Assembly (NCBI GenBank): GCA_001724265.1
Contig: MEDY01000002.1
Coordinates: 62,001 to 126,000 of the forward strand
Reading direction: 5' to 3'
DNA length: 64,000 nucleotides
From: Rhizaria sp. SCN 62-66
Lineage: Eukaryota
In this document: positions 15,001-54,649 of the stretch, in pieces
Numbering within the stretch: the first letter of the stretch is position 1
How the letters are laid out: each line of letters begins with the position of its first letter
Program-made: the position numbers and the translations under genes
Notes under the pieces: generated by a model
Told to the model about the DNA's origin: nothing
The model's database searches: none
The model's input: only the letters and a program-made list of their open reading frames with translations

Positions 15001-16479
15001 GCGCAGCACAGCGCCGGCGCGAACGCTGTGGCCACCCACGGCCAGATGAGCATGCAGGGCCGGCACAGCGCCCACGGTCAGGCCGGGCTTGGGCTCAGTC
15101 CCCCCGGCACCGCCGCCGGTCAAATCCCCAATCAGGCCCCCGGCCAGGCCCCCGGCCACCTGCTGACCGTGGTCAAGGCGGGCAGTGCGGGCGGCCACCG
15201 GCCGTCTCAGACCCAGCCCGGCGGCGGCTCGACGGCCGCGAACGCCGCGGGCGGGTCGCCGAGCATGCAGGCGTCGCCGGCGCCGACCGTAGTCAGCGTG
15301 AGCTCCGCCAACAGCAACCCGTCGCGCGGCAACACACCGATGCGGCGCTCCTTCGTCAAGCCCAACGACGGCGCGGCGACGGCGGCGATGGCCATGAACA
15401 TGAACGCTGCCATCGCCGCCGCGGCCGCCGCAGCCGCTGCCGCCACGCTCGGAGGTGTCGCTCCGTCAGGCTTCGCGTTCCCCCCGGCGGGCTTCCCGTC
15501 CGGCCACGGCCAACAGGGTCAGGGCCAACAGCAGCATGGGCATGGGCACGGTGGTAAATCGACTGTGGGCAGTCCCGGCCGTCACGGCCACCACCGCCGC
15601 GCGGGCAGCGTGTCTCCCATCCCAGTCAACCCGTCGTCACTGATGGCGAAGCGCACTCTCGCCGGCCGCCACCTCAACTTTAACACCAACGCGGCCGGCT
15701 CCAACCTGAGTGGGAGCGGAAACACTGTCAGCAGTCTGAGTGGGGCGACGGCCGGCGGCGGCACCCCCGTCGTCGCCCCCGGTGCCAACGGGGGCGGCGT
15801 GATGGCTCTTTCAGTCACGCCCGACTTGCAACGCCCCAACAGTCGCTTCGCATTGCACAACAACCTTGCTAACGCAAACGCGGTGCATAGCCCTGGCATG
15901 ACTGCGAGCAACTACAATAGATCAGTTTCCCCCTCGGCAGCGCTCTTCTGGGGCGCCACCAACCCCAACCCCGCGGGACGGATTGACTACAACACCCCCG
16001 CCGGCCTCAACACGTCCAACTCGCTCGCGCTGAGCAGCGCCGCTCTCGGCTCCAGCAACAGCGGCGGCGTCCCGCCCACCATCATCGGCAGCGGTTTCAC
16101 TAACACCAGCAGCAACACCGTCATCAACGGCAGCAACAGCACAACTGCTGGGATCCGGCCTCTGATGCGGATGCCGTCGCCGGTGCTTGAGGCGCACTAC
16201 CTGACCCAGTCGCAGTCGCACGCGCACGCGCAGGCGCAGCTCCAGGCTGCTAACGGCGCCCCTGGCTCCGGAACTTTTGGCGCTGCCCCGCCCGGTGTCG
16301 AGCGCCTCCCTAGCGCGTTGATGCTGTACCGCGGCTTAGCTTCCGGGTCGCCGTAGCCCCTCGTGGCTGCCAGCGCCCATGGTCAGTCCCACCACGCCCG
16401 AAGCGGCGGCACGCACACGCGCGCTGCGTCCAGCGTCACCTCAGCGATGCTCAGCCAGCTCAGTAGCATCAACAACGGC

Positions 16480-16516
<37 letters not shown>

Positions 16517-19500
16517 GCAACGCTGGAAGTGTGCATTCGCCAGCCGTCTTTGACGCCAACGGCAACCCTAGCAGTTCGTTCGGCACCTATGCTCTGCCCC
16601 CGCCGACTGTGGCGTTGGACTCCCACGACCACAGCAACGCCACCTCGCACGGCGACGTGTCCCTCAGGACCCCCGGGGGCGGCCTAACTTCCCCGCCCTC
16701 TGCGGACGGGATCTCCGCGACGCCCGGTCTGTTCGGCACAAACACCGATTCTGACTCGAACGCGGCCAGCAGCGGCCCCAGCCTCCACGGGCCGGCCGGG
16801 CAGTCCGTCAGCGTCCTCGGCGCCGCCAGCGCTGTGCCCCGCGGCAGTGGCTCCAGCCCGATGTACGTCAGTCGCCAGGGCAGTCCGCGCCACGTGAACG
16901 CCGCTCTCGCAGCGGGCCTCAGCGGCGGCGTCAGCTCCGGCGGCGTCGGGCTCGACGTCGGGCTCAGCATCAACGTTACGGGCACCGGCCCCAGGAGTCC
17001 CATGCGTTCAGCCAAGCGCAGCCCGCACGCGCCGCGTAGCCCCAGCGCGATACAGCACCACACGCGCGCCAATAGCCCGTCGCACAACTTCAACAACGGC
17101 CAGTTCTTCCCCGGCAGCAGCGGCGCGGCCACCAACGCTAACAGCGTCCAGCTTAGTCCCTCGGCAAGCACGCCGAACCCACATGGGAATGCGCTGCAGC
17201 TGGGGGCGTCGCCGACCGCGGCGGCCGCCGCGGCTGCTCTGCTGAACAACACGAGCAGCAATACCAGCGTGCTCGCGTCGTTCTATGGCAACAACGCGAC
17301 GTCGAATGCAATCGCCGCCGCGCTCGCAGCCGCTGGCAGTCCCAACGGCGGTGGCAATGCCAACAACGGCCCGTTATCGGTACAGCAGCAGCAAACCATG
17401 GGTATTGCCTCCGGCCGCTTTTACCCCGGTCCCGGCACGCCCACTTCACGTCTCTCGCAGCACTTCCAGAGCAACAACAACAACAACAACGCGAACATGA
17501 ACTCGCCGCTGATGTCACCCGCATTCAACGCTGCAGGTGAGGCGAGCGTGAACTCACTCGGTCGTCGGTCACCACCGGGCACGCCCACATACGGCATCAA
17601 CGGTGTGAACAATAACAACGGCGCTGGCGTGGGGTCAATGCCTCCGCTGCTGGCCAGTTTGACTGGCTCCCGCAACCACTCGCTCGGACCCAACGCGGTC
17701 GCTGCGGGACTCAACAGCCACCACGGCATGGCGCAGAGTGCGGGCACGTCGAGCAGCAGCAGTAACATTGATGCTACGATGTACAATAGCGTTAATAACG
17801 TCAACATGATGAGCAGCGTCAACAGCAACATGTTCAACGGATGGCATGATACGGAGTCTGGTCACGGTAAGACGGGTGGCGACGTTTACAGCTCGAACCC
17901 CGCGATGGACGACAACATGAACGGCAACGGTAACTTTATCAACGGTGTCGGCGTCAACGGTGGCTACAACGGCGCTGTACTGTCGTCTGAGCTTGTGCCA
18001 CAGGGGCCCGGTCCGCTTTTGGCTATCACAAAGGACCCTGCCGGTGGCATCTTACTACCGGAGACACAGGAGTGGCTGCAGTCAGTCAATAACCCGCTGA
18101 ACCACATTTCCCACTTCGACTTTAACACGCTCAACAACGAGCTCTTCAGCGGCAACGAAGAGACCAATGAGCAGTTCTCGCAGGAGCTTGCCGGTGTGCG
18201 CATCGGACTCGAACTCGGACTGCAGACGTCGCTGCGTCTCATTCTCGCAATGGTAATCCTGATCCTTCTCCTCGGTCTGCTGCTGCCTAGCAACACCGTC
18301 TCCCGTGCACCACTGTATTTCCTCACGTCAGTCAACGCCGTCGTCGCCCTCGGCGACCCTCTCGCGCAAAGCACCGCGGTGACTCTGTTCACCGCTTCAT
18401 TCGCCGACGAGCTCATCAAGATGGTCATCAACGGCGTCGTCGTGTACTCGAACCCGTCGCTGGCATCAATGCGCACCCGCGATCTGGCCCACTACAGCGT
18501 CGGCGCCGTCAGCGCCACTATGTCCGCACGCGCGCATCTGCACTCAGAGATCGTTGGCCTGCTGATCATCACCACGGCCGCCATCGTGCTCGGCGCTCTT
18601 GGCGGTTTCGGCATCAACTGGCTTATTTCAGTGCTGATTATCCAGCCTATCGTGCAAATGACCGACTTCGTCGCCGAACTGGCCCGCAACCCGCTCGCCA
18701 AGATCAAGCGCAAGCGGCCCGAAGCCTCCCGCTCCTGTCTGTCCGCGAGGCTCAAGGCCGACAACATCGACGGCCGCTTCCAGACCGCCGAGCTCGAGGC
18801 CACGCTGGTTCAGCTTGCCGGCCTGCTTCAGGTCGGCTTCGGCGTCGCCGGTGCTAAGATCATCTCGCACAACCTCATCGGTCCTTACCTGGACCCCATG
18901 TTGCCCGGTCGTAAGATCTGGGGCGTGTTCGGCTTCGGCTCCATCCGCCGGTTCAACTTCGTTGTCGAAGTGCTCGAGCGCGACGTCATGCTGTTCATCA
19001 ACCAGATTGCAGAGCTCGTGCACACGCAGTGCCACAGCTACGGCGGTCACCCGAACAAGAACATGGGCAACGCTTTCCTCATCGTCTGGAAGCTACCAGA
19101 ACAGGCCTTCTTGGACGATGACGACGACGGCGGCGGCGGCGAAGACGACGACCAGCTCGCGCCCCCGCCAGACTGCCTCAGTCTCGCGATGCTGGAGCCG
19201 GAGTTCACGGACTCCGACTACGACACGACGCCGAGTGAGTTCAGCCAGTCTGCGTACGACTCGAATGCGGCGTCCGCGCCCGGCTCGGACTCTGGCTCGC
19301 GGATTGACCGGCTGAGCGGCAGTGACCTCAGCAACAGCTACAGCGGCAGCGACATGAGCAGAGGGCGCATGCGCGGCCGCTCGCCTAACTACTCGGGCTC
19401 CTCATCCACCCGCAGCAGCAGCTACAGCGGCAGCGACACCGACAGCGGCGACTACAGCAGCGCCTGCAGCACGTGCTCCTACTCTGGCGGTCCGTACCGT

Positions 19501-22500: not shown

Positions 22501-25500
22501 GTGGCCGCTGCCTCGCAGCAGCAGCAACATCAGCTGTCGCAGGTGCTTGCGGCGGCGGCCGGAGCACCGCTCCCGGGCTCGCCAGTGCATTTCACGTTAT
22601 CTGGCGCCCTGAGCCCCGGGGCCCCGTCGGGCGCGGTATCCGTGTCCGGTGGCGGCGGCCACATCAGCAGCACCGGGCTGTCCCTGCTCTCCAACACGAA
22701 CAACGCCAACCTGCCCGCGCACGCCAGCTCCGCCAGCGCGAGCTTTGGCTCCTCCAGCGCCGGGGGCGCGAGCTTTGGCGCCTCCAGCGCCGGGGGCGCG
22801 AGCTTTGGCGCCCCCAGCGCCGGGGGCGCGGGCAACGGTAGCGCGACGGTCCTGCCTCTGCGCGACGCCGCCGCCGCGGCCGCCAACGCCAACAACGGCG
22901 ATGGCGGCAGCGTGAGTGGCGTGGCTAGCCCCCGCATCCAGCACCGCCAGGCCGCCGCCGCGCAGTCCGCCGCCGCGGCCGCGGCCGCCGCCGCCAGCGG
23001 CCGCCGCCAGTCGACGCTGTCACGCCCCCTCGGCGCGCCCGGCGCGGGGCTGCCGCAGTCGCTCACCTCCCCCGGCGCCGCCTCCGGCGTCCTTGAGCCC
23101 GGGGGCGCGTCAGCCCTGGCAGGCACCGCCGGGGGGTCCACGGTCAGTGCACTGCTCTTGAGCGGGGGCAGCGGCAGCGGTGTGATGAGCGGCCGGCTCG
23201 GCCCCAAGCCGTCGCCAGACTTCCTGCCCCACCAGGCTCTCGGCGGCACCGCCATACACTCATCTCCACCGTCGTCGTCGTCGTCCTCCTTCTCCTCCTC
23301 GTCTGCGGCGGCGGTGGGCGGCAGCGGTGGCGGCGGTGTGACGGTGTTCAGCTCAGGCGTGTTTGGCGGCAGCTTCAATGGCTTGCAGTCGCTCTCCAGC
23401 TTCAACAACAACGTCACCAAGGACACCGCGAGCAACGCCAACAACGCCGGCGCCAACGCGGCGCGGCCCACCTCGGCCACTTACGCCAGCAACAACGGCG
23501 TCAGTCTGCTCTCGATGGTGCAGCCCGCTCCCCTCGACACAACGTTCCTGAGCCACGCGGTGACGAAGAACGACGGCAGCTCGTCTAAGGGCCCCAGCTC
23601 CCCGACGCACGTCGAGCCGTCGCCGCCGAGTAACAAGGCGGCTGGCGCGATGTCCCCTGCCGCAAGCGGGGACTTCGAGAACAGTGCGACCCTCCGCGGC
23701 AACCACATGTCCCCTAGGTACGCTGAACGAAGATACTGCGCATCAAAGTAAATTAACGTTAATGCGATGCATATTAAATTGTGTTATTGCATACTTCTGG
23801 ACTCTTTTGCTAATCTATATTTCTTGTATTTTCTTGTTTTGTAATCTTCTTTCTGCAGTCGCATGCCCCGCCGGTCCCCGTCGCTGGCCCCGCGCCGGCT
23901 CACGGCCTCTTCACCCGCCATCTCCGGTCTGCGGCTGCTAACTCCCGCGGCGACTACAACGACGCTCGCGGCGCACGCCTCCAACGCCAGCAGCACCCCC
24001 AGCGGTAATCACGCGAACAACGCTCATAACAGCGTCGGCGGTGGTAACTCCTCGAGTACAGCGAACCCGAACGGTCTCCCGATGCTACACATGGACACCC
24101 CGACTTCGCCGACACTGTCGATGCTGCGGCGGCCGTCGCTGCCTTTTGCGTCCCCCGCGGCCGCGGCGGGCGCCGGCGGCGGCGGCAGTGGTGTGGTTCC
24201 GTTCAACCTGGGCGCCCGCGCTCGGTCTGGATCAGTTGACTACCACCACACGCACGGTCACCACAGTCACCACAACCACCACAACCACAGGAGCGAACGC
24301 AGTGACCGTGACCGCGACCGTGAACGCAGTGACCGTGAGCACCATCGCAGTGACCGTGAGCGCGACCGCGATCGTGACCGTGAGCATCACAGCCACCACC
24401 GCAGTGACCGTGAGCGCGACCGTGACCGTGAGCACCGTGGCAGCCGCCGCGACTCCCTGGCCGACACGCCCGTTGCCGGGGTCGCCAGCCCAACCGGCAC
24501 GGTGGGCAGCACCACGGGCCAGCGGCTGCTGCGCCACATGGAGTTCGCGAATGAGGGCGACTTGCTCTTTAGCGTCGGCGAGCAGGGCGAGGAGCGGCTG
24601 CGGACCAAGAAGGACAAGAAGGACAAACGGGACAAGAAGGAGAAGAAAGACAAGAAGGAGAAGAAGAGCAAGAAGGACAAGCGCGACACAGTCGCCACCA
24701 ACGGCAGCGAAGTCGCAATGATCGACGGCGGCGGCCCGAACCTGGTCGACAGCGTCGCCGGCTCTAGTCAGGACCCTTCGTCTCCTATGCAACAGCAGGC
24801 CTACTCGCTACAACAGCAGCAGCAGCAACAGCTCGGTCACAGTCATGCCGTCTCTCTCGTCTCCACGATGAGCTCTCAGAACGGCGGCCCGCAGCCCAGC
24901 AACAGCCACAGCAACAACGCGCGCAGCAGCAACAGCAGCAGCAACGTCGCCACCAGTGTCCCGCAGATGAGCCGCGTGCCCACCCTCAGCGCCAACGTGC
25001 CCACTGACGGCACGGCCCCGGGCGCTGCCGCGGCCGCTGGCGCCGGCGGCGGCGACAGCAACAGCGACACGTTCAGTTCCTACGGCCAGATGTTGCAGCG
25101 CTCTAAAACGCATCACCACAGCAACCTGCAGCACTCCGCGTCCGCCAACGCAGGCGCAAGCGCTGCCGCTGGCGCTGCTGCTGCTGCTGGTGCCACCACG
25201 AGCATTGCCCCCACGTCATTGTTCGACAACTCGGCCGCGACCTCGACTACGAACGCGGGCAGCGGCGACGCGCTGAGCCCGCTCTCCCCGCTGAACAACC
25301 CCGCGCCTCACGCCAACGCCGCCCACGCCAGCGCTCTTCTCCACACCGCGGCCAACACGAGCGCCGCCAACAGCGCAGTCGCCAGCCCCAGCACGGTCAC
25401 CAGCTCCCGCGTCGTCTCCCCGTTCGCCGCCAGCGTCACCGCGCACCGGTCCGACCTGGTGACGTCGCCGTTCGCGGCGCTGGGCAGCAGCTACGCCGTC

Positions 25501-28500
25501 GCCGGTCTCAGTGCCGGTGGCGGCGGCGGCGGCGGCGTCATGCACGGCGCCCAGGCGCCCGCGGTGACGGTCAGTGTGACCCAGGGCGGGCATGGCGTCG
25601 TGTCGCCGTCGCCGACCGGGTTTAACACCGCGACTGGCAGCGCGGGCGGCAGCGTTGGCAACCCCGCCAGCCACCAAGCCACGCCGCAGGTCACCACCGT
25701 GGGGCTCAGCAGCAGCGGCGGCACGGGCAGGGTGGGGCGGCATCGCCGCTCGCAGTCGGGCTTTCGCGACTCGTCCGTGTTCTCGCCGCTGACGACGCTG
25801 ACCACCACCACGGCGGGCGCGGCAAGTGCCAACGCGGCCAACAGTGCGGCGCCGGCGCCGAGCGTGGTGATCGCCGAACACCTGAGCGGCGGCGGTGGAG
25901 GCGGCATGGTCCCGGGCACCACAGGCACCTCTAGCCGCGGCCACTCGCGCTGCAACAGCGCCACCAGCGCTGTGCTCAACGCGCTCATCCTCAACACCAA
26001 CGCCAACACCAGCGGCACCACCTCGGGCACCACGTCGCCGCCCTACAGCACCACCGGCGGTGCCGTCGCGAACGCGGGCGGATCAGGACCCATGCCTCAG
26101 CTGTTACCCATGGGTTCCATGGGTTCCGCGCCGATGCCCACCATCGGCGGCTTAACCACCGGTCCCTTGCCGATCCGCCGACTGTCGAGCCACTACCACA
26201 GTAACTCGAGCTCCGCCAACGTCAACGGCGTTGCCGGTCTGTATGCCAGCGGCTTCACCTACGAGGACGAAGGCGACGACCCAGTGTTCTACTCGAAGCC
26301 CCACTCGAGCCGCAACAGCTTCCTCCTCACCAACGCCGCGGCCGCCGCCGCAACTGGCTCTGCTGCCGGAGCCGGCGCGGCGTGCCCGACTGCGAGCGCC
26401 AACACGACTGCGATGGCCCAGGCCGCGGCGTTCGCGTCGCTGCGCAGCCACGACCCTCTGCTGAACCCCACGCACTCGGGCTCTTCCGCGCCCAGCGGCA
26501 GCGGCCACGGCTCCGGCGTTGCGCAGCCGCTCTACTCGGAGGCGGGCGTGTTGCTGCCAGTCGCGGGCGCGCCCGTGGTGTACTCGCGGCCGCCCTCGCG
26601 CGCGCGGTCGCCGCATCCGTTCATCCGCTCTCTGTCCCCGCTGCACTCGGCGCTCAGCGGCGCCGCGGGCGCTGCTGGGGCGGGAGATGCTGGGACGGGC
26701 GCGGGCAGCAGCGCGGGCAGCATGGTGACTGCGCTGAACAAGGCCGGCAGCGACGGACCGAGCGCGAACATCTTGCATAACAGCGCCGACCTCGCCAACG
26801 GCTCCGTTCCCGGCTCCATCGAGTTGCCGGTCACCTCTACGCGGTCGCGTCGCGCATCATTCAACCACGGCAGCGCGACCCTCGGCGCGGGCGCCGGCGC
26901 CGGCGGGGGCGCGACGGTGGGCTTGGGCTCGTACGTGTCACTGGCCCCCGCCGCCGCGGGCGCGGGCGCGGGCGGTGAGCCGAGCGCAGTGCTGTCGCTT
27001 CTGTCGCCCGCGATCCACGGCCACAGCCACTTCCCCGCCACGATGTCGGCCGCCGGCGCGCACGCGAGCGCCGGCGGCGGCGTCCCGGGCAGCAGCGACA
27101 GCACTGCGCCCGGCACCAGCTCGCGCCGCAGCAGCACGCACCGGCTGCTGTCGCGGCGCAACTCGCGCCAGCAGCCGCTCGCGGCCACGCCCGCGCTGGC
27201 GCAGGCCGCCGCCGCCGCGACCACGGCGGTGGCCGCCTCGGGGGTCGCGAGCAGTGCTCACGGACACGCCCACGGTCACCCGCACGGTCTGAGCCCCGAC
27301 GCGTCCGAGGCCAGCAGCCCGGCCCACGGCCACAGCATCGGCCACCGCCACCACAGCGGTAGCGGCGCGCTGCTGGGCTCGGGGCCGGGGTCCTCGAGTG
27401 CGAGTGCGGCCCACACCCACCCCAGTCTCGACGACAGCACCACGGGCCCCTCGACTGGGGTCCACACGCGCGCGCTGACCGCCGAGGCCGGTCAGGCTGC
27501 AGGGGCCCATAGCGGCAGCGCTGGCGGCGCTGCGCCGTCGAGCGCAAACGCTGCCAGTGCCGGTTCTGCGGCGACGCCGTTGATTGTGGTGCCCCCGGAC
27601 GTCTTGCTCTCCCCTACCGGGCCTGTGACCGCCAGCGCGAACGACGCCGCTGCACCGGAGAGACTGACCACCACTGTCCCGGCCGCCGTCGCCCCTGGCG
27701 TCAGTGTCCCGACCGCGGCCGCGACTAGCGCACCTGCGGCCACGAACGCTGCGACCACCGTTAGTAGTGCTACGACGGCGGCGACAACGGCGACGGCGAC
27801 GGCGACGACGGCGACATCGGCGCGCATTGCTGGTGTTACCCAAGGCACCAATAAAGCATTCATGGAGCGTCCCGTCACCGACTCGCTCGAGATTTTCCGG
27901 TCCACAGCCGCGCACGCCCCCACGGTGATGTACGCCCACGGCAGCGCCGTCGCCGGTAGCGGCGCTGCGGGTGGCAGCCACGCCGGCGGCAGCAGCTCTG
28001 CCACTGGCGAGGCCCACGCGCCGGGCACGCTCTCCGCCGCCGCCAACCACAACAATAATAACAACAACAACAACAACAGCAACAACAACGGCAGCGGCAG
28101 TAACGCTGCCGGCAACGGCCAGCCCCACGCCGCCAACGCGGCCAGCGGAGCCGCCGCGGGCGCGGGCGCTCAGCCCCCAGCGTGCGGCCTGCCCGACTGT
28201 GACGACGGCGTTGCGGGCCCCGGCGGTGCTGGTGGTGCGTCCAGTCCGCAGCGGCGGCGCGCGCGCGCGCCGCGGCGGCGGTCGAGCAAGAAGGTCGCCG
28301 CCGAGGCCGCGCTCAACGCCGCGCTGGGGGCGACGCGCGGCACAGGCGCAAGCGCGGGCACCTTCTCGGCCGTGGCCGCGCAGACAGTGATCGTGACGAC
28401 CCCGCTGGCGTCGGTCCTCAGCAGCGACGGCACGGTTGTCAACACGGTGGCGCTGGCGGCGATTCCTGACGTCGACGACTCGAACCTGAGCGACAGCAAC

Positions 28501-31107: not shown

Positions 31108-31148
<41 letters not shown>

Positions 31149-32162
31149 TGGCCTGGACACGAGTCTGCTGGGGCCGCTGCCGCCGCAGTCGTGGCTGCCG
31201 ACGATGCGGGGCCGCCGCGCGTCGCTGGACAGCTCGCTGGTGCTAACGATCGCGCAGCAGCACAGCCTTAGCGGCGCGCACGGCGGCGGCGGGCCATCGA
31301 TCACGCCCAGTCTCGCCGCGATGCACCTGGGCCCCTCGCCGAACAACCAGCAGCAGCACATGCACCACACGATGCTGCAGAGCCAGCAGCTGCTGCAGGG
31401 CCAACAGGGTATGTTCGGCGTCAACGCCACTCCGGCTGCCGCCAGCACGGCGATCGTAACCTCCGGCCTGAACAACAGCACGGTCTCGCCCGGCCTCGGC
31501 AACCCCGGCACTGGCGCTGGCGCTGGCGTTGGCGTCGTGAGTGTGACCGGCGGCGGCGGCGGCTACCAGGGCCGCATGCGCCGCCGCGGTAGCCAAGCAT
31601 TCCTGACCGGCCACCTCCCCCTCAGCACCACCAACGCCAGCGCTCTGGGTGGCGGCGGCATGACGGGTGGCAGTGCCGCCGGTTTGATGGGGACGGCCAG
31701 CGTCCGCTCGTCGTCTGTGCATCCCCTCGCGGCCACTACCAGCGGCGCGCTGGTCGCCACGCCGGCGCCGGCGCAGATGGGCCAGAGCCAGGGGTCCGCT
31801 CACGGCCACGGGTATGGACACGGGCACGGCGGCCGAGGCAGTCAGAACAACACGACGTCCGACGCTGCCAGCGCGGCGAGCCTCGCTGCCGGTACCGTGA
31901 CCCCCAGCATCAACAACGCGGGATACAACCGCATGACCACGACCGGTGGCAACAGTCAGCAGCAGCAGCAGCAGATGCAACAGCAGCAGCAGATGCGGAA
32001 TGCCGGGTTCTTCAACCCGCCGTTGTCGACCCGGAGCACGCTCAGCAACGTCAACAACGTTAACGGCGGCAGCGGCAGCTTCGCCACGGGCCTCAGCGCC
32101 TTCTTCGCGCCCAACGTCAACAACAGCAACAATACCACCGCGGCAGACTCCAATGTGTACGC

Positions 32163-32234
<72 letters not shown>

Positions 32235-39531: not shown

Positions 39532-40106
39532 GGAGGGCTGGTCGAAAGCAAAGCAATGCTGGGTCAGCTTGTTTTGTGGCGCATCACTTCTCAATCGTTC
39601 CTGTTACACATACTCAGAGTTATTTTTCACAACAAACGATTTTACGGATTAACAATGGTTTATAGTTTTTTATTTACTTTGGATTTGAATTTAGTACATG
39701 CGCTAATGCGCTATAATACAGTGATATTTTGCATATCTACGAGACTTGTGGAGATATCTTTGCTTTTATGCTGTTTGTTCTTGGTCATTGTATACTGCAG
39801 GCTGACAAGCATCGCGGGTGTGAGGCTCCATAGAAGGCTAATTTTGCAGTTCTACAGCTCTATCACATAACCGTCAGTAGAGATTCTGGGCGAACTTGTG
39901 GATTTAAGTGAGGTTTTCTAACTAAATCCAATTTCATTTCCTCTTAAACCTTTGCGCAGTTCGTGGAACTCGACTCAGAAATCAGGTCCCTTCGCGTGCT
40001 GGTTCAAACGCGGCCCCCTCCCTCTTTCCCCCGGACTGCTCCACACCTTCCCTACTTTCTCAACCCCCCGCTCGGGCGTCTGCGCGTCTTGCCGTGACCG
40101 CGCCCG

Positions 40107-43100: not shown

Positions 43101-46100
43101 GTTCAACACCCGCATTCGTGCGCATCACTCGATCTCGCACAAGCGGACGGGGGATCAAAGTCAAGCCGCCTCGCCGTGTCATAGCCCGATCGCGTCCCCG
43201 ACTCAAATCCACGCCGTTATTACGGATCCCAAGTCTGCCAACAACAACAACACTCTCAACAGCGAGTTGATCGACGACGAAGTTAAAGCGAGCACGGATA
43301 ACCTCTCCGGTGGCAACATCGGTCTGTGTCACTCGGCGACAATGCCCAACGATGCGACTCTCACCAGCTCTAACGTGGGGATGCTGACCCGCTCTCACAG
43401 CCACTTCCCGGCGCAACAGGGAGGACAGGGGGCGCCGATGCCCAGCCTCTACTACACGGGGGGCTATCCAGCGTCGGGCAACGCGCCCCCGCACGGCACC
43501 GGCAGTGCTTCGCTGCGCCCCCATAGCTCGCAGTCGCAGTTCAGGCCCCTGTCGGCTCTCTCGCTGACTGCACAGCAGCAGCAACAGCCGCTGCCCCAGT
43601 CACATCAACAGCAGGCGCAGTTGCAGCAGCAGCAATTACAGCTGCAGCTGTCTCACCATTCTCGCAACTCGTCTCGTGCTTCATGGCACCAGCAGCCCCA
43701 GCAGCGGTTCAGCCACCCTCACTCGACCACCTCAACCGGCACCTCGTTCCCCTCCACACCAGGCGCGATCGCCGCTGGCACAGCAGCAGCAGGAGCAGGC
43801 GCAGGCGCATCGGGCACTAGTGTTAACGGCTCATTCGTCTTTCCGGGAGGCTTAACTTCCGGCCTCGTCCCCGCCTCTGCCCACAGTCACCTCTACAGCA
43901 ACGGCTCTCGCCCCGGCTCCGCTGCGGCAACGCCGCTCTACGCTGGTTCCCGGCGCCTTTCACGCTATGGCTCGACTGCAAGCTCCACGGCGACTGCTGC
44001 TGCCGCGGCGGCCGCGGCAGCGGCAGTGGCGGCGGCCGCAGCGGCGACCGCGGCTGTGGCGAGGGAGGCTGCGGACGCGGCGGCGGCGGTGGCGGCGGAG
44101 GGCGGCGGCGCTGGTTTTATCGACCTGCAAAGCAGCAGCAGCAGCAGCAGCAGCAGTAGCAGCGAAGACGGCTCGGATAGAGACAGTGATAGAGACAGCG
44201 GCCATGACGACGGGGTTGCTAGGACTACCAACTCAGCCGCAAGCAGGAGCAAGGGCAAGAGTGTTAACAACAACAGCTTGTCTAAGAATAACAAGCAGAA
44301 TGTTACAAGCGCTCGCAACAACTTTAATCGCAACAGCAACAGCAACACCACAGTGAGCAATGCTATGAATAACAGCGACGCTGGTGTTGTATGCGTCGAT
44401 AACATGAGCCAAACGGTGCATAATGGGGACCTCCACACGATCGTCGACAACAGCGACGACAACGCTGAAGACGGTGACGAAGACAACAACAACAACGACA
44501 ACGACAACGGCGATGATAACGATGACGATGACGAATACGGTGACTACTACAACGACGACGGCTTTGACGCCAACAATCACAACAACACTGCCAACCAGCA
44601 TCTGTTCAGTCGGCCCACTGACATCGACAATAGCAAGCCGTCTTTGTTCGGTCCCGGCCATCTCAACCTCAACCTGGGCAACATTCACTGCGACAACAAC
44701 AATAATAGGAGCAAGGGCAAGAATGGCAGCCTCACCACGAGCAATCAGTCCCAGCTGCAGCAGCAACAGCTCGCTCGGTGCGAATCAGTCGGCTCCAACA
44801 CGGGCTCACACGGCAGCTTAGGTAAGCCGCCACGTGTTACCCCGCGTGCGCCGCAGTCCGCACGCGCACAGTCGCGGTCACTTGCTCCGCCCGCGAAGGG
44901 CTCGCTCACGCGGCAAAAGAGCACCGAAGACGTCCACTTAACGCCGACTGCAGCGGCAAACTCCCTCGGGTTTTTCTCAGCCCACTCGGGCTCTGGTTCT
45001 GGCTCCGGCGGCGCTGTCACTGGCTCCAACTCCAACTCCAACTCTGGCGCGGGCGCGGGCTCCGGCTCTGGCGCTGGCACTGTAACCGGTTCAGGCTCTC
45101 CAAAGAGCGTTGGGCCAGGCAGTCCAAACGTGGAGCACCGCGGGTCACTTGCGCAGCAGCAGGAGAGACAGAGACTGCGACAGCGACCGCGCCAGCTCAA
45201 ACATCAGCAGTCGTTGGGCAGCATCGTCACCGCCAGCAACCGGAGCAGCCTGGTCGGGGGCTTTGGCGGCAGTGGCACCACGCTGACTGCCGCCGTCGCC
45301 GCTGCGCTCGCTGGGGCCAAGTCCCGCACTGCAACACACACCAAAGCAACAGCGAAAGCCACACTGGTACCTGCGAGTGCGAGTGCCCAGCTAAACTCTA
45401 GCTTTGCCCACGCAGGCTCCGGCGTGACTTCCGGAGACTCGGCGACGATTGGAGACACACATGATTCCCTGACGCAACAACAGCAACAGCACCCGCAGCA
45501 GCATAGGCCGCCCTCCCGCGGTGGAATGGGGCTGTCGATGAGTGTGATCCCGCCCAATCGGTCGCTTTCCCGTAATCACACGGGTTCGTACCAGCAGCAA
45601 CAGTTTTATCTGCAGCATGCGCCTCAGTACGTGGCTCTCAGCAACAGCGGCGCTTTCCCAGTTCCTGCGATGTATACTGTGCCGGGACAACACCATCAGC
45701 AGTCGTGTCCTCTGTTCAGTCCCGCCCCGGCCTCGGCGACTCCGCTGCAGCAGTCGCGGAAGTCGGACCCGGCCGATGGCAGCCCTGGCGCTAACAATGA
45801 CGCTGCGACAGAGACTGCTGGTGATGAAGCTTCTGCTGAAAGCAAGTCTAACAACGCTCATGCCAGCGCTAACAGTGGTAGCAGTGTTGCTGCTCGTGTT
45901 ACTGCCATGGGAACAGTCATCGATGCGATCACTTCCGTGGACATCCCTGTCAGTGCTGCTGACAACGCTCAGAATATAAGCGCCTCACCCGGTATAAGCG
46001 CCCTGGGCGACAGCCCCCAGTTCTTCCCCACTGCGAACAATACGCCCAGTGTCTTGCCGCGCCACCTACCCGAAGAACACACGTTAAGCACCCCTGTAAC

Positions 46101-47631
46101 CGAGATGAGGACCGTGGCCGCCACCTGCGCCGCAACAGAGGGGCTCAACACGAGTGGCATTGCAGCTGCTAAGCATCCTGTGTGCACATGCTCAGTGCGC
46201 GGTTTCTCCCCGCATCACCAAGGCCCTTACACCGGTAACCCGCAAGGTACTTACGCAGGCGGCGCTGTCCCCGGCAGCGGTCGCTTTGGCCACGCCGGCT
46301 CCGGTCTTGTTCCCCCTTACATCTCGATGAGCTCGCGGCCGACGACCCCCCTACATTCCGCCCGTCTCCAGCTGCAGTCGAGTCTGCACCATCCCAGTGC
46401 AGTGGGCGCCGGCGGCGGCAGCGCGTCCGCTCAGATGCAGTCGTCGCGACTGCATCCCAGCATCCTCGCTGCGCACACCCGCCAGAGCTACAGCCACAAC
46501 GCTAGCTGGGGCAACGGCAACAGCAACTTAGTCTCTGGTGCGTCGTTTGCGCACTCTAGCACTGCATGCGTGAACAACAGTACTGCTGATGCGCCAGTGC
46601 ACGGCTCGAATGACTTTGATAACAGCTCCGCCGCCGCCACCGCAACTGCCGGCACTGCTAACACTGGGTTTTCCTCGGCATCGAACTTCAACAACACCAA
46701 CAACAGTTCTTTCTACGGCTATGGCAACACCAGTCTCAACAACGCGAATACTGGTGGGCACGCGTACGGCCCCAACACTAGCTTTGCGAGCCAAAACTTC
46801 CGCAACAGCGGCGCCAGCGCTTCAGCCGCAGCCGCCGCGGCCGCAGTCAGTTCCGCTGCCCTGGACGCCAAGCGCATGCGGACACTGGCGATCCTGGAGC
46901 GGGCCTCGCGCCGCGCCGCCGCTGCCGCCTCCGCTGGCACCAACACGCACGCGAGCGCTAACAGTGAAGCTGACGCTCCTCGTGGCAGCGTGGCGAGCAT
47001 GGGCTCTGCGACGGGCGCTTCAGGTATGCGTTTGCGGCAAGCAAGGGTTTCTCAGCTCACCAAAACGCCCAGCGTCGGTCCGTCGACTACGACTGCTCAC
47101 GGTCACGCCCACGGTCACTCTGCTAGAGAGAGCCCTGGGTCTGCGGCCCACAGTCGATTGCCGCGAGCCCACAGTCACTTCGGCTCCGTGATCGAAGAGA
47201 ACTCTGATCTCACGACGAGCAGCAGCAACGCGAGCGGCAACAACAGCGGCAACAGCGGCGCCGGCGCCAGCAGCGGCGCGACGATGACGACGTCAGCTAG
47301 AGGCCCTTTGACTGGCGGCAAGCCGGGTCTCGTGCGGGGCGTTACTCTGAACAGGCCCGGGAGCGTGATCGCCGGCGGCCGCACTCTCAGCGAACATGTA
47401 CCCGTCGCCGATGAAGCTGCCGTCACGAACGCAGATCAGCGCACTGAGAATGGCGAGACCCGGCTCACCGTCACTGAAGACCCCGATAACAACGACACGG
47501 TCAGCGGTGAGGGCGACGCTGCGGCGACACTGGACAACAACATGACGTTTGTGGGCGACACCGCCCGCGATTGCACCAGCGACGTGAATGCTGCGTACAC
47601 CAACGCCGACACTGAAGCTGACGGTGCCTCC

Positions 47632-47663
<32 letters not shown>

Positions 47664-50600
47664 GGACACTGCCAACCGCAAGAAAGCGCGCCGCCGTCGC
47701 TGGTTTCCGTTCCTCAAACGCCGCAGCAGCAGCGCGGACGCAGCGGGCGCTGTTGACGCGTCCGCTGCTGCTGCTGCTGTCGGCGGTGGCGCGGCTGTGG
47801 CCGGCAGTGGCGCCGCCGCGGCAGTGTCGGGGCCTGTTCCGTCGTCGGACGTCAGCGGCTATACGTACCAGACGTTCCGTGTGCAAGCGCGCAAAGAAAA
47901 GCCCTCCGCGCTTTACGCACCGCTCTTCACTCCGCAGCAACAACAACAGCAACAGCAGCAAGTAACGCAATCGCATGCGCAGGGACAGGCTCAGAAATCA
48001 CTGGCCCAGAGCCAAAGCGATGCCTCAGCAACTGCTACTACTGCTGCTGCTGCTGCCGGCACTGACTCAGCCGTTGATAATACCACGCCCGGTGGCAGCG
48101 ACCCCAAGGACAGCGTTGGCGACAGCGGCGATGGCGACGGTGGCATTGCTCTGGGCGAGTTCCCCCTTGACGCCGACGGTCAATTCAACACTTCCGACGT
48201 GTTTTTCCTCCTCAAGTCATTCAAGCGCGACCAGCGGCGGCGCCTGTTGCTGCGCGGCGACATCAAAATCGAGATCATTCGCCACGGACTTGCGTCGAAA
48301 CAGGTTATGTGCTGGTTCTGGCTTAACACCGCGTTCATGTAGCCCAAGCTCGAGTTCACGGAGGCGTATAACGAGTTGGAGCGGGTGCAGCGTGTGTCGG
48401 ACGCGGCCGCAAAGGCCAAGGCCGAGGCCGATGCCGAGGCTGAGGCGCGAATGACGGCGGCGATCGCGGCCGCGGAGGCCGAGGCGGAGGAAAAGGCTCA
48501 GGCGCAAGCGGCGGAGGCTGAGACTGCGGCCGACGCGAATGCTGATGGCGTGAGTGTCAGTGTTGCGGGCAACAATGTAAGTAGGACTGCTGGCGGCGAT
48601 GTAAGTAGTCCCTTGTTGGACCCCATTTCGTATGCGTACATCACGAACAACAACAGTCTCACCACGAATGGTTGCTCAAGCCCAAGCAGTGCGAATGTCA
48701 GCGCGAATGTAAGTAGCTCGCGGCTTGCATTAGATCTCGCCGCAGCAGAGCCCGACACTGATACGGTTGGCAATGCAACGCGTAATTCACAATCGCTCGC
48801 TGCGACAACGATGCCCCCCAGAACTGCGACAGCTGTGGCGGCAACGGGCGCATCGATGGCGGACAGCGTCAAGGGTGCGGATAATGTTAGTGTTGCTAGA
48901 GCTGATGTCACAGCAACAACGACTGTTAGCGGCCAGAATACTGACAGTCCCAACAGCAGCGATAACAAGGCTCTTGTTGTCACTGAACCAACAACGAGCA
49001 CGGCTGTTCAGACTCTCGCGAGCAATCCTAATGCCAGCGTTGCGCTTGAGAAGTCGAGTAATCCTTTCAGTAACCCCCTGAGTGATCTCGGTCCTATCTT
49101 GCCCCGCTCAGCTATTCTAGCGCATGCGCTGCCAAACATTCTCCGCGCCCCAGCCATCACCAACAACAATAACGTCAACAAGAACTCGACATTCAGCACC
49201 GGTTCCTCTGTTGCTGTTGCGAGTGCTGCTCCGACCGCTAACAGCAACAGTCTCGCTGTTGCGCCAGCAGCAGCAACAGCTGCGAGTGTCAGGCTACGGT
49301 CGCCGCCATCTTCGGCTATGCCCGCATCAGTGTCAACGTCAACGGCCTTAGCGCCACCACGCGCACGGTCTGTCTCCCAGTCGCAGCCGCAGGCCCCGTC
49401 ACTGTTGCTGCGCAACGCAGCCCCCGGCGCACCCTACGCTCTCGGTTCCTCCCTTCTCTCAGTGCCGGTGCGGCTTAACTTGCGCAAGGCTCAGATCGAT
49501 GACGTGGACAAGGCAGCCAAAGTGTCGGAGGACTTTGTTATTACGCTGACGTACAGGCACGTATGGCACGGTGAACCTATCGGCGCGCGCAATCCCGCGT
49601 ACATCAACGCCAGCGGTAGCAACAACGCCAGCATCAACAGTAGCGCGGACAATAACCGAGAGAATCCGGCCGCGGTGCCTCTGGTGACTGAGACTGACGC
49701 TGCGGCTGATCCCGTGAACAGGAGCAGTACTGCTGTTGCCTTGCGTAATAACAGTGTTGTGACACGCAACACTGCCAGCCCTAGCGTTGCTGACGTCGCG
49801 CTTATTGGTAGCCTCCGTGCAACCTCGCCTGTTGCGGCTGCTGGTGTAAGTGGGGACGTCGATTTAAGTGCCTCCGCACCCGTTCTAAGTATCTTGGAGA
49901 CTGTGGTCGCCGGCGGCTGGGTGCTGGGATTGGATGCGGCAGATCTAAGGGGTCGCGATGGTGTAAGTGGCGTCGATCTCCTCCCGTGGCCGGACGCGAA
50001 ACGCGAAAACGAAGCCGTATCTCTCGCCAAAGAGCTTGTTGTGTCCACTGCGACGACGGTGGATGGGCTGCTACACAGTGGGTTGATTCAGATGTATCCG
50101 CAGCAGCAGCAACAGCCTTCGCAGCAACAGCTGATGTACGCAGCCTCTCCTCGTCCTAGCTGTGCTAATCTCAACAACTTCTCTACATCTGACAAGACTG
50201 CTATTTATAACGCCAACACTCCTGCTTTTGCGGACGCTTACAACGGGGGCAACGCTGATAACAGCTTCACAAATGCTGTTGAGATGACCGTGCTTGGCAA
50301 GAGCTCAAGCGACGCCCACGTCAGCATCGTCAACGTTAGCAGCTCGCGCGACCTCAATCTAAGTACCGCGCCCCTTAGTCCCCTCGTGGCATCGCACTCG
50401 CAGACGCTGCTGACCCCGCTCGTGTCGAGCCAAAGCGGCGTTGCGCACACCGACACGTCGACGATCGCGGTCGCCGCGTCACCCGATCTCGCCGCAGTCG
50501 CGGAAGCTACTCCTGAGACTACGTTGGTAGCAGACGGTGCTGGGGGTGGGGAGACGGGCATTGAAGCTCAGACTGTGCATGAAGCTGGGACTGTCGCTGA

Positions 50601-53600
50601 CTCTAAAAACAACAATGACGCTGCACCTACGGTTGAAAACGTTGAGAAGGCTCAGAAGAACGATCACACTGACAGCTGCAGTGACGGTGGTGATTTGTAC
50701 GACGTCGAGACTGTGCTAGACAGCTCTAGCGAAGACGAAAAAAGTCAGGCTGCGGCTTACAATAACAAGCCGCGTGGCTCTGGTTCAGGGGCTCGTCTCA
50801 ACACGAACGCTCACGGTCAGAATGCCCGCCGCGGCCACTCGCGGTCCAACAGCAGCACGAGTCAGGAGAAGCTGCTGCAGTTGACCAGTTTAGCGATGAT
50901 GTCACCGTCTGGATCAGCAGCACCAATGCCCACATTCTTTGTGTCGCCGTCGCACAGCTACAGCAGCCATCAGGCGCAGCAGCAGCAGAGGCCTGGGCAG
51001 CAGCAGCAGCCGGGCTTGCCGAAGCAGTCAAGCGTTGTCTCGGTCGGCTCAGTCTCTGGCTTCCGTGACAGCGTCAACCTCAGCAGCAGCAACAGCAACA
51101 GTGGTGAGAATAACGTGAACGCTAGCAGTAACAACAAGTACGGCATCTCCGCGACGCTGCTCGCTAACGCCACCGCCGCCGCGGCCGCTGCAGCCTTCAA
51201 GGGCTCGGCCTCCGGCGGCGGCGGGACCCGGGGCAGTGTGAAGCAAGGCGGCAGTCGCCGGTCAATCGCCAACGGCAACGGCAGCGGCAGCAACGGCTAC
51301 GGTTACGGCCCTAACCAGGCCAGGGGCAGCATCGCTGCGAGCAGTGTGTTCCCAAGCAACGCCAGTGACGAGGCGCTCTATGTTGACTACGAGGCGGATG
51401 AAACGTCCTCCGTTGCGCCCACAGTCAAACCCGGCGGCCATATTGCCACCAGCAACAGCGCCGGCACTATCTCTGCTGGTGGCAACAGCGCGAACGCGCC
51501 CTCTGGCGTGGACAATGCGTTCCAACAGCAGTACCGCCTGCACTATGGAAGCGGTGCTAATAATTCTGATGTTGGCAACACCGTCCGAGGTGGGTTAAGC
51601 GCTGGAGAGAGTCCGTACACTGTGCGCCGCCGCGGCGACGACGTGAATACCTCTAACAGCACCGAGAATCGCGGCAACATCAGCAATGCCACCGCTGCTG
51701 CCATGATCGCGGCTGCAGCGGGAGCGAAGGTAAGCCGCCAGGGGTCGACTCACAGTCACTCTCACCACGCCAAGGGTAGCACGCACAACAGTTCTAACTA
51801 CGCAGGCGACTCGAATAGCTCTGTGTTTAGCGCCAGCGGTGTTGACAGCAGTCTCAGCAACAGTAGCGAGCGCCACAACAACAACAGCAACGCCGCCAAC
51901 ACTAGCGCGAATGCGGTGAACGTGAGTAAGAGCAAGAGCAACAGCAGCAATAGCAGCAACAACAGTATTATCAACGCTGAAACAGGTGCTGTTGTGCTGG
52001 TGCCCGCTGTGACGCGGCCGTCAGTCAGCGGCATTGTTGCTATGCTGCCTGCATCTGCGTACAACAGCAATCATGCCGTGAAGTTTCACAACACGAGCAA
52101 CACCAGTGACGCGTCAAGCATTAGCGACCACAATAGCCACGACATCAACAGCAGCGGCAGCAACGCGTTTGTCGCCCAGCATCTGCTGCGCAACGGCAAC
52201 AAGACCAACGCCCGCGCTAGCGTCGTCGTCATCCGCGGCGGAAAGCCCCATGACCGAGCGCGCGACCGTGGGCATGAGCAGGAGCCTGACTACGAGGACG
52301 TGGAAGCGGATGACCTGGAAGAGGTGTACACCGAGCAGCATCCATGCGGCGTGCACTTCAACCGCTCACAATCGCTGAAGACGGAGGCGATCCCGACTGG
52401 CACCTATACCAGCAGCAGCAGCGGCGGCGGCAATAACGCTCACAGGAACGCCGCTGACTCTCCGGCTGGCGCCAGTGCGACGGCAAGTGCGTCTGCTACT
52501 GGTGGTGCTGCGACTCGTTTCGGACTTGCTCCTGTGGTCATTCCGAGCAATTCTAACACGAGCACGAACTCCAACTCCAACAGCAGCGCGAATACCAACA
52601 GCTCCGCCACCAGCTCGACCGGTACTGATGGTACTCCTGGCACGACAACAGGTTCTGATAACGCTACCCCCGCATTCGCCGCTGCAACTGGTGGAAACGA
52701 CCATGTCGGTGCGATCAGCGTCGGCTGGGTGGGCGTCAGTCCCGGCGGCGCCGAGGCCGTGTTCTCTGTCTCCGACGTTATGCCGAAGCGCCACCTTGCG
52801 TCCAGCAGCAGCGGGGGCAACAACAACGCTGCGATCGCCAACTTGAACGCGCCTCTCGCGAAAGACGGCGTTTCCGGCGGCGTTGGCATCCCCAGTATCG
52901 CGAAGATGGGCAATGTAAGTGGGCTAGGCTCGTCTCAGTACCCGCGCCCTTACAGCCCGCAGCCGTCCCCTTCGCCGCCGCCAGCTGTCGCCAGCGATAT
53001 GCTGCCGGGAAGCACGTACAATTCCATCAAAGCCAACGCCGCCTCCAATAGCAATATCAATGTCAGAGCTGGCGTTGCAACGAAGGTCACTCTGCAAGCT
53101 CCAACCCCCATCATCCCGCAGCAGCACCAGCAGCCGTCTTCTGAAGCCAACCCCGATCAGCCGCCGCCGGAGCTGCAACAGCTGCAGCTCCAGTTGCAAC
53201 AGCAGCAGCACATGCAACAGCTACAGCAGAGCTTAGAGCCCGGGCAAGCCCAGCTTGTGCCCAATATCAGCGCTGTCGGCAGCCAGCACGATAGCGGCGC
53301 TTTTGTGAGAGACAATAATGACGGGGTGGCGGGAACTAAGGGACTTAGTACCATGAGTCTAAGTGGTGACGTGCTTTATCAAAGCGACTTAGAGCACTCA
53401 CAGTTACAGCTACAGCTGCAACAGTTATCACAACAGCGATCCGCCGTGCTTGCTCTCGCGCAACCGCAGCCACAGTCGCAAGTGAATGAGAACAACAGCA
53501 ACATGTTGCACAACATTAACGCCGTCCCGACCTCGTCTTCGCCCCACGACGCCGCCTTCAACGCCAGCGCCGACAGCGGCTTCAGCGTCGCCGACATCAG

Positions 53601-53799
53601 CGGCGGCGACAACCACAACGCCGCTGACGTCATCAATGTGAGCCACATCCCCCGCGGGAGTGTCTGCGCCAGCGAGGCCCTTACATTCGATCTCCCGCGC
53701 GCGCCTAGCCTGGCCCTAACATACTCGCTGCCGTTGTCGGGCGCAACGCCGGTGCAGAGGTCACAGGAAGACGGCGAGCAACAGCGAAAGCAAGAGTAA
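40107..53799 (+). CDS. TPTE: Voltage-sensing phosphoinositide phosphatase (VSP/TPTE-like: 4-TM sensor + PTEN-type phosphatase + fragmented C2), ~4,508 aa; join(40107..40279,40446..53799) with in-frame TAG at 48340-48342
   Basis: Four TM helices, linker ARSIVGQNKQRYRKNGFDLDLAYIT, IAMGLPS...EGAYRNPI, NLCAERTYD, FDDHNPP, active site HCKGGKGRTG (from 41188), QGVAGPSQIRY. C2 strands: PVELLTLSVH (~41915), LRGDIKIEI...MCWFWLNTAFM (~48250-48339) and RLNLRKAQIDDVDK...EDFVITLTY (49471-49555). ORFs 40345..48342 and 48376..53799 share one frame. Confidence 0.82.
40280..40445 (+). other. Spliceosomal intron (166 nt, phase 2) in the VSP gene
   Basis: GTACGT...pyrimidine-rich...CAACAG. GA|C gives Asp and joins the ATG-40107 exon in frame to T-C-E-D-R-A-N-A-F-V-R-H-P. 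Confidence 0.8.
48340..48342 (+). other. In-frame TAG inside the C2 domain of the VSP gene (candidate recoded codon)
   Basis: GCG TTC ATG TAG CCC AAG CTC: directly follows the conserved FWLNTAFM strand. The last C2 strands are encoded ~1.1 kb downstream in the same frame. Confidence 0.85.
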
Positions 53800-54271
53800 G
53801 CAAGTACGCTAAGAAAGAGCAGTATCGCCGCACCCAGTCGCTGTGAATCTGACGATATCCGTGTGTGCCCGATGGTAACAAGTAACAAACCGTGGTGGCC
53901 ACCGCCAATTATGAATAGCAACGAGATTCCGTGGCTTTATGTGTGTCTTGTGCAGATTATTTTTGCGAATTAATGATTTAAACATTTATTTTTGATATTT
54001 TACAATAGTTTTTAATCAAATCGCTTTTTTTTGTTTCTGTGTCAGTCCCTTGTTAGTTTCTTGATCGCATAATCAAGGCAGGCTGAACAAAGCGAGCCAT
54101 ATCTCCTTTCATGTGAACAACGTTACATAAATACAATACATCTGTGCTTTTGTGTCACAATTGGGCTTGTTTTGTACAGACTGTATTTGTTAACTTCTTT
54201 CCTCCTGGCCATATACGATCTTAAACAATGACTAGGAAAGTTCTCGTGTTGTGCTGCTGAAGCTCTCAGTT

Positions 54272-54649
54272 TCACTGCGGCGTTGTCGTCTCATTCGCGG
54301 CGAACAACAGCGCGCGCAATGCGCTGTTTCTACCGCCGTTGGCGGTAGTGGTAGTGCTGGCGGCCGCCCGGAGCACCAGCATGGCAGGCTCGCCCTCCTT
54401 GACTGTGTACTCCCCTTCAGCTACCAGGTGGCCCACCACCGTCCGGAGCTCCGGCTCCTCCACCACGGTGTCGTACCGCGCGCGCAGCTCGGCCCCCGCG
54501 GCGGCGACGACGGCGGCCGTCGCGACGGCGTTGTCGCCCTACAGGTTGAGCTTGTTGAAGGCGTCAGTGAGCGAGGAACGGATGCGGGCGGCGCGGATGC
54601 GCGCCAGAGGGTCGTCGGTCACCCACCCGTCGATGTACGTAGGGTCCAT
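54272..54649 (-). CDS. Small hypothetical protein (~125 aa from ATG 54649; upstream exons possible) with in-frame TAG at 54541-54539
   Basis: GC-rich island with strong C/G-ending codon bias on the minus strand: MDPTYIDGWVTDDPLARIRAARIRSSLTDAFNKLNL*GDNAVATAAVVAAAGAELRARYDTVVEEPELRTVVGHLVAEGEYTVKEGEPAMLVLR...TTTPQ-TGA. ORFs 54539..54727 and 54272..54466 share a frame. A TTCCGCAG acceptor-like site ends at 54651. Confidence 0.55.

Follow-up and report, generated by a model that had tools for sequence, protein, structure and literature searches.

In-frame TAG codons in three genes of a GC-rich wastewater eukaryote suggest a candidate nuclear code with UAG as a sense codon

Outside the ciliates, few changes of the nuclear genetic code have come to light, and those in which UAG and UAA carry different meanings are rarer still. 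In the ambiguous stop/sense codes of Condylostoma, karyorelict ciliates and Blastocrithidia, a stop codon is translated within genes and, where its position so dictates, serves to end them as well. Codes in which UAG alone has become sense form a rare but known kind, to which we add here a further candidate case: three genes that are each interrupted by a single in-frame TAG, on a stretch of 64,000 nucleotides (nt) deposited as Rhizaria sp. SCN 62-66 (assembly GCA_001724265.1, contig MEDY01000002.1, positions 62,001 to 126,000 of the forward strand). This whole stretch is hereafter called the window, and positions are counted from its first letter.

Among the described systems, the rhizarian exLh, a member of the Sainouroidea from the bug Lygus hesperus, was reported to read UAG as leucine and to use UAA and UGA as stops (Panek et al. 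2017, PMC5304391). The account given there counts 384 in-frame UAG codons in 71 genes, with UAA as the stop in 56 cases and UGA in 15 (PMC5304391). In the eRF1 of exLh, the residue that corresponds to human Leu69 is Ala. The same source describes UAG as glutamine, with UAA kept as a stop, in the fornicate Iotanema spirale (PMC5304391). In ciliates, UAG is reported to encode glutamine next to a UAA stop for Hartmannula sinica and for Trochilia petrani, and to encode leucine in uncultivated phyllopharyngeans, for which suppressor tRNA genes were described and which were discovered by mining metagenome assemblies (PMC11687900).

On balance, we favour the reading that UAG is translated as a sense codon of the nuclear code in the organism from which the window comes. 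Under such a code UAG would not terminate; the ribosome would insert an amino acid and continue, and genes would end with UAA (mostly) and UGA. A dedicated tRNA with anticodon CUA would be the most likely mechanism, and the code would be akin to that of the sainouroid exLh; the tRNA, the efficiency of decoding, the amino acid inserted and the taxonomic link are inferred.

TAG codons within continuous coding sequence

Open frames, coding statistics and RNA contigs yielded seven gene models in the window, which has a GC content of ~64% (Table 1). TAG interrupts the giant gene g2 at 16354, the phosphatase gene g3 at 48340 and the small gene g4 at 54541. Between 5593 and 39529, frame +1 holds three stops and no more: TAG 16354, and the TAAs at 23749 and at 23842, which are both intronic. 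Between 40324 and 53797, TAG 48340 was the sole in-frame stop. Over the 19,249 codons of six models, read from stop to stop with the OLA1 gene counted apart, we found three in-frame TAGs, no TAA and no TGA, and no frameshift was needed, not even in the 11,264-codon frame of g2 that runs from 5596.

Coding potential was scored as the codon-usage log-likelihood per codon, with only genes devoid of TAG as the training set. In the frame of the gene, the scores upstream and downstream of the TAG were +0.30 and +0.34 at 16354, +0.20 and +0.24 at 48340, and +0.48 and +0.36 at 54541; the other two frames scored negative at all three sites. The GC content of third codon positions (GC3) was 0.83/0.83, 0.65/0.65 and 0.89/0.86 respectively. 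Likewise, the GC content of the 300 nt past each TAG was 0.62-0.68, as against 0.35-0.47 past the seven real stops, where the coding score was negative and frame 0 held four to eight further stops in six of the seven cases (none past the g2 stop). The AT-rich spacer that is present between all real genes was missing at every TAG. Off frame, stops occur in the two big genes at a density of 2.2-5.2% per codon, from which we infer that the open runs of 1,818 and 7,678 codons past the TAGs cannot be accidental. The TAGs sit inside continuous coding sequence, and a search for paralogous copies of the three contexts within the window, which might have revealed the original sense codons, matched only the sites themselves. 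A first reading made from the letters alone (the sequence-only reading) had reported these TAGs, the lack of in-frame TAA, TGA or frameshifts, and a fall in GC past real gene ends and not past the TAGs; its positions and flanking codons were exact, and our counts agree with its other statements.

TAG 48340 lies inside the PTEN-type C2 domain of g3, in the context CWFWLNTAFM-TAG-PKLEF. When a piece of g3 of 400 amino acids (aa) was searched against Pfam, PTEN_C2 covered residues 147-184, with the TAG as residue 181; profile positions 62-102 of 133 were matched, and the match ended three residues past the TAG. Among the 589 pattern matches listed in a metagenome scan, one related locus, L001 (496-3225 of its contig), encodes a compact, 909-aa orthologue of g3 that ends with TAA and is 44% identical over 345 aa of the voltage-sensor and phosphatase part. 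In L001, five residues separate CWFWLNTAFI from RIILRKEQIDEVARDKNV..LQLEY; in the window, the TAG comes directly after CWFWLNTAFM, and 376 more low-complexity codons separate it from RLNLRKAQIDDVDKAAKV..ITLTY, with the frame unchanged. This insertion of 377 codons relative to L001 is open and scores as coding throughout. Because L001 places the final conserved portion of C2 377 codons downstream and in frame, translation has to pass TAG 48340, and a g3 protein stopped there would be without the end of its C2 domain. A protein search with the C2 piece around the TAG gave no homologues, and PTEN from the PDB aligned across the TAG weakly (E 0.83). The stop-to-stop frame of g3 (4,490 codons from 40327) is much longer than the 909 codons of L001; the excess consists of in-frame poly-Q/N/A/S-rich insertions, one of which is that within C2.

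In g4, the TAG is codon 37 of 125, in the context FNKLNL-TAG-GDNAV, and the ATG lies 2 nt past a CAG acceptor at 54653/54652. Since the 88 codons past the TAG have a strong coding signature and the next ATG of that frame lies at a distance of 54 codons, translation must pass TAG 54541; no open reading frame was found in other frames over the downstream part of the gene. A word-index search found no homologues of g4, and a full HMMER search of 1.84 billion representatives returned two matches, of which one was its own 36-aa truncated form. The other, a repetitive 974-aa protein (E 6.8e-4), proved to be a chance repeat match by pairwise comparison. The Pfam search assigned g4 to no family, and an AlphaFold model made without an alignment was unusable (mean pLDDT 43.1). 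The gene is transcribed although it is an orphan without a confident fold.

TAG 16354 is codon 3,587 of the g2 frame, in the low-complexity context LASGSP-TAG-PLVAAS. Downstream of it, g2 encodes the C-terminal half of a catalytic domain of the class III nucleotide cyclase type, which matched a photoactivated adenylyl cyclase in the PDB with E 6.5e-7 (about 29570-29800); the Pfam score of g2 for Guanylate_cyc was 20.4 bits, under the cut-off of 21.9. This half-domain is a weaker sign of passage than the evidence at the other two sites, since a separate start is possible. By eye alone, ~18760-19130 of g2 resembles the beginning of a cyclase domain of class III; Pfam gave no match there. The two cyclase-like parts lie roughly 3,500 open low-complexity codons apart.

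The letters of two TAGs were found again in assemblies of other studies. We compared 40200-60000, an interval that includes two of the three sites, 48340 and 54541, with contigs of two DNA and two RNA runs. A DNA run of a different study (X3) held contigs over 48067-50351 and 53757-55242 with 0 differences, which carry TAG 48340 and TAG 54541 respectively. In a DNA run of a third study from 2025 (X4), a contig over 53584-55257 keeps TAG 54541 and has a single difference, at 54516; because this difference alters the amino acid 8 codons past the TAG, the contig represents a slightly different strain that retains it. The RNA run X5 gave a contig of 479 letters over 54179-54652 that covers the g4 coding region in full, has 0 differences, is free of gaps, carries UAG at 54541 and was assembled at depth 12.7. 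This contig is RNA, because its match to the genome ceases 5 letters before its end, at the CAG|A acceptor ahead of the ATG, and because the same run holds OLA1 with its three introns removed; the pattern suggests that the g4 mRNA is spliced to an upstream 5' exon. TAG 54541 was thus seen in three further runs of three studies dated 2017 to 2025, and the difference rows listed held no alternative letter at 48340-48342 or 54539-54541. No inference was drawn from a piece at ~48180-48359 that X4 is without or from the parts of g3 uncovered in the RNA contigs. The sequence-only reading had allowed for consensus errors in the DNA and for splicing or editing of the RNA. At 48340 and 54541, TAG stands in the contigs of other studies too, and the g4 transcript, as seen in the single RNA contig over 54541, retains its UAG unspliced and unedited, with no change to CAG.

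Table 1. Coordinates of gene models, in-frame TAG codons, introns and the conserved C2 segment in the window
Feature	Positions	Strand	Description	Basis
g1	3-4853	+	partial, 1,616 codons, low complexity, ends TAA, 0 in-frame stops	
g2	5695-39531 (first ATG 5695; exons to 23717 and 23859-39531)	+	giant gene, two exons, ends TAA	
In-frame TAG no. 1	16354-16356	+	CCG TAG CCC, in g2	
g2 intron	23718-23858	+	141 nt, AT-rich, GT..AG, donor GTACGC, holds both TAAs	sequence-based model
g3	40345-53799 (first ATG 40345)	+	voltage-sensor-like membrane domain, PTEN-type phosphatase and C2 domain, ends TAA	
In-frame TAG no. 2	48340-48342	+	ATG TAG CCC, in g3	
Conserved last C2 segment of g3	49471-49554	+	RLNLRKAQIDDVDKAAKVSEDFVITLTY, 377 codons past TAG 48340, same frame	aligns with L001 residues 819-846 (pairwise E 0.017, 39% identity)
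g4	54272-54649	-	small orphan gene, 125 codons, ends TGA	
In-frame TAG no. 3	54541-54539	-	CTG TAG GGC, in g4	
OLA1/YchF gene	55086-56819	-	4 exons, no TAG, ends TAA	introns shown spliced in RNA
OLA1 introns (three)	55599-55813, 56387-56518, 56548-56761	-		shown spliced in RNA
g6	57390-58478	+	TLC-domain gene, ends TAA, 0 in-frame stops	
g7	59841-63998	-	partial, 1,385 codons, ends TAA, 0 in-frame stops	

Gene ends, TAG usage and rival explanations

Six of the seven genes end with TAA (4851, 39529, 53797, 55088, 58476, 59843) and one with TGA (54274); TAG ends none of them. The base after the stop is a purine at all seven real stops (A, G, G, A, A, G and G at 4851, 39529, 53797, 54274, 55088, 58476 and 59843), as against C, C and G after the in-frame TAGs at 16354, 48340 and 54541. 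Both the tabulation of gene ends and the C at +4 of two TAG sites had been noted in the sequence-only reading, as had the great rarity of TAG and its absence from OLA1; TAG makes up 3 of the 19,249 codons, whereas CAG was counted 784 times, CTG 544, TTG 132, TTA 59 and CTA 54 times.

Several points weigh against a sense UAG. The whole case consists of three codons in one 64-kb window, and a usage of 3 in 19,249 codons is far under that of a settled synonymous codon. By analogy with TTG and CTG (132:544), a neutral TAG for glutamine would be expected to number ~190, and a TAG for leucine tens to a hundred, in the order of TTA, CTA and TTG. A tRNA scan found no tRNA gene in the window, and hence no tRNA(CUA) there; Rfam gave no match in the same 64 kb, so rRNA is missing from it too, and it holds no eRF1 gene. 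The lack of TAG among seven gene ends says little. With the codon usage of the window, TAG is what 64-69% of single-base nonsense paths yield, most of them starting at the abundant CAG; plain nonsense mutation would thus give three TAGs out of three with P = 0.26-0.33. The strains that were compared hardly differ (0-1 differences per 1.5-2.3 kb), which by itself leaves room for a recent nonsense allele, and the compared runs are contigs, in which minor or rare variants can be hidden. Finally, the taxonomic link is drawn from a single gene, in a tree with a single named rhizarian, and Rosculus vilicus, the only published sainouroid genome, has a GC content of 37.7% (PMC10770858) as against ~64% here.

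These points also change what can be kept of the sequence-only reading, which had proposed a UAG code variant or else systematic readthrough or editing. A translated UAG stands in so far as the TAGs are real (in DNA of other studies at two of the three sites), translation has to pass them, splicing is unlikely and no editing was seen in the one RNA contig over 54541. Two of its arguments lose force: the count of three TAGs with no TAA or TGA was correct and is weak evidence, given the chance probability of 0.26-0.33, and the count of 0/7 TAG ends was also correct and is weak as well, because the genes are few and the nearest named relative uses almost only UAA.

The strongest rival is leaky readthrough, in which UAG would still be a stop that near-cognate tRNAs decode, at these sites, frequently enough to keep the genes functional, and the three TAGs would be mildly harmful mutations that are tolerated, or regulated switches between isoforms. 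The extreme rarity of TAG (3/19,249) would fit this well, as would the C at +4 of two of the three sites where all seven real stops have a purine, the G-TAG-CCC common to two sites, and the position of two sites in low-complexity or inserted sequence. However, the known readthrough contexts CARYYA and CUAG occur at none of the three TAGs (the contexts are CCC CTC, CCC AAG and GGC GAC), and there is no downstream RNA structure, with 120-nt folds at z = +0.25, +0.16 and +0.26 (200 shuffles each). At a readthrough of a few per cent, most g3 product would be without a complete C2 domain and g4 would be a 36-residue peptide. Moreover, we know of no standard-code organism with programmed readthrough at the density of three in seven genes of one window. 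We regard leaky readthrough as unlikely, with the proviso that a 64-kb window cannot separate a sense reassignment by a dedicated tRNA from readthrough that is efficient.

Genuine nonsense alleles seem to us less probable again. The TAGs would then be recent null or truncating mutations, perhaps on one haplotype of a polyploid or heterozygous clone, in dispensable or duplicated genes; three TAGs would be unremarkable when 64-69% of nonsense paths lead to that codon, the mutations could be young among strains so nearly identical, and contigs hide minor alleles. Against this, the mutations would have struck three of seven genes and left 19,249 codons of low-complexity sequence prone to slippage, with the intact frames of 11,264 and 4,490 codons among them, free of frameshifts, TAA and TGA. 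TAG 54541 recurs in three further runs of three studies, including the strain with a nearby amino-acid difference, and the rows listed give no other letter at this site or at 48340. The depth of 12.7 for the UAG-containing g4 transcript gives no hint of strong nonsense-mediated decay, a weak argument as contig depth is a poor measure, and the functional parts lie downstream of the TAGs.

It is very improbable that the genes are mis-modelled, with the TAGs spliced out or RNA-edited, or with each gene in reality two. All three sites read G-TAG and thus contain GT, the organism has introns, and TAG 48340 lies exactly at the start of the 377-codon insertion relative to L001. However, that insertion is open and coding, and the donors of all four known introns are unusually uniform, GTACGT or GTACGC (5' ends 23718, 55813, 56518, 56761). 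The GC content of three measured introns was 0.28-0.46, and the g2 intron is visibly AT-rich, as against a GC3 of 0.65-0.89 in exons. As donors the TAG sites would read GTAGCC, GTAGCC and GTAGGG, in GC-rich, open and coding-like sequence (GC 0.62-0.68), and because they differ in this way from GTACG[T/C] donors with AT-rich introns, splicing at the TAGs is unlikely. None of the three TAGs is accompanied by the AT-rich spacer of real gene borders, and the RNA contig over 54541 is colinear with the DNA and unedited. Independent assemblies of other studies give the same letters at 48340 and 54541 and thereby rule out an assembly or sequencing error at these two of the three sites; overall, such an error in the source contig is a negligible explanation.

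If UAG is a sense codon, its usage of 3 in 19,249 codons would mean either that the change is young or that UAG is still decoded inefficiently and selected against, and may show the first steps of a reassignment. One form that this could take is an early stop-codon capture, in which a deep relative of the sainouroids has given up UAG as a terminator and admitted it as sense in a few weakly constrained positions. Guttulinopsis is reported to end nearly all of its known transcripts with UAA (PMC5304391), and this dominance of UAA suggests that UAG was abandoned in the sainouroid group. We advance early capture tentatively, as a possibility on the doubtful side. If true, the organism would be a living intermediate between relatives with the standard code and exLh, and 'codon capture' and 'ambiguous intermediate' models could be tested against each other on genomes drawn from public wastewater data. 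Whatever its history, a sense UAG has a practical consequence: standard gene callers cut such proteins at TAG, and a protein library already contains, as a 'protein', the stump of 36 residues left of g4.

The organism and its occurrence

The window is nuclear DNA of an uncultured, single-celled eukaryote. RNA contigs of two runs (X5, X6) show canonical OLA1 introns removed; the X5 contig has lost all three and the polyA run X6 one of them. Public runs that contain the stretch are metagenomes from bioreactors, wastewater and activated sludge (12 rows from 9 studies, four with at least half of the sampled words); the organism recurs in ordinary wastewater metagenomes of several studies from 2015 to 2025. 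A viral contig collection gave neither exact matches nor relatives of the window, and a Pfam search assigned no family to g1.

We used exon 3 of OLA1 for placement. Environmental proteins matched it at 69-74% identity, and the best named match was Guttulinopsis vulgaris (EukProt EP00461) at 68%, with other named matches at 61% or less among the 120 listed. In a quick maximum-likelihood tree of 32 rows chosen from these 120 hits (the closest and all named), the window was sister to Guttulinopsis and 13 unnamed sequences (SH-aLRT 94). This one gene gives a lead, short of a placement, towards the clade of Guttulinopsis (Sainouroidea, Cercozoa). Sainouroids (Rosculus, Guttulinopsis) are described as abundant in wastewater plants (PMC8827150). 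Our literature search found no report on a sainouroid genetic code beyond the parts of PMC5304391 cited here, and no GC-rich sainouroid genome. In the OLA1 contigs of X4 and X6 (55245-55332, 56027-56342), many differences stand three bases apart, which points to a relative within the same study, either a strain or a species. A search of prokaryote genomes for mis-binned contigs of the organism retained 80 loci, each of them a bacterial YchF of 42-57% identity.

Should the link with Sainouroidea prove right, the window would either date the code change of exLh or document a second change in the same group.

The amino acid at UAG and comparison with known codes

The sequence-only reading had called the amino acid probably glutamine, an assignment that we do not uphold, as its basis was that CAG is one transition away from TAG. 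Searches found no homologues at 16354 and 54541 that inform on the residue, and 48340, where the aligned residue is N in L001 and P in human PTEN, falls at the start of a variable loop and lineage-specific insertion. Because the group of the nearest named relative includes exLh, with its documented leucine, the phylogenetic lead would point to leucine. In our estimate glutamine is plausible at somewhat under an even chance, leucine is nearly as plausible, and some other residue is the least probable of the three and still to be reckoned with.

As in the ambiguous codes and in programmed readthrough, translation in the window takes in a stop codon within genes. The window differs from the ambiguous codes in that TAG is found at none of its gene ends, although seven are too few to judge. 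Like Iotanema, Hartmannula and Trochilia, it shows a candidate change of UAG alone with UAA as the main stop; those lineages are unrelated, and glutamine is demonstrated in them where here it is a guess from CAG. With the uncultivated phyllopharyngeans it has in common the discovery in environmental assemblies, the UAG-only change and the preference for UAA; tRNA(CUA) genes were found in them, and they are AT-rich ciliates, the present organism being a GC-rich non-ciliate (PMC11687900).

In comparison with exLh, the clearest difference is one of usage, with 384 UAG codons in 71 genes there and 3 in 19,249 codons here (PMC5304391). The leucine meaning in exLh was derived from conserved positions and likelihood, whereas the meaning in the window is a candidate only (PMC5304391). 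The habitats differ as well, exLh coming from an insect and the window organism from wastewater, with a sainouroid membership suggested by a single gene. The likenesses are nevertheless several. In both, UAG is the only stop codon found in frame, and UAA and UGA share the gene ends in similar proportion (56:15 in exLh, 6:1 here). UAG is reported to be avoided in highly expressed genes of exLh (PMC5304391) and is absent from OLA1 in the window, and Guttulinopsis, the nearest named OLA1 relative of the window, belongs to the same group as exLh.

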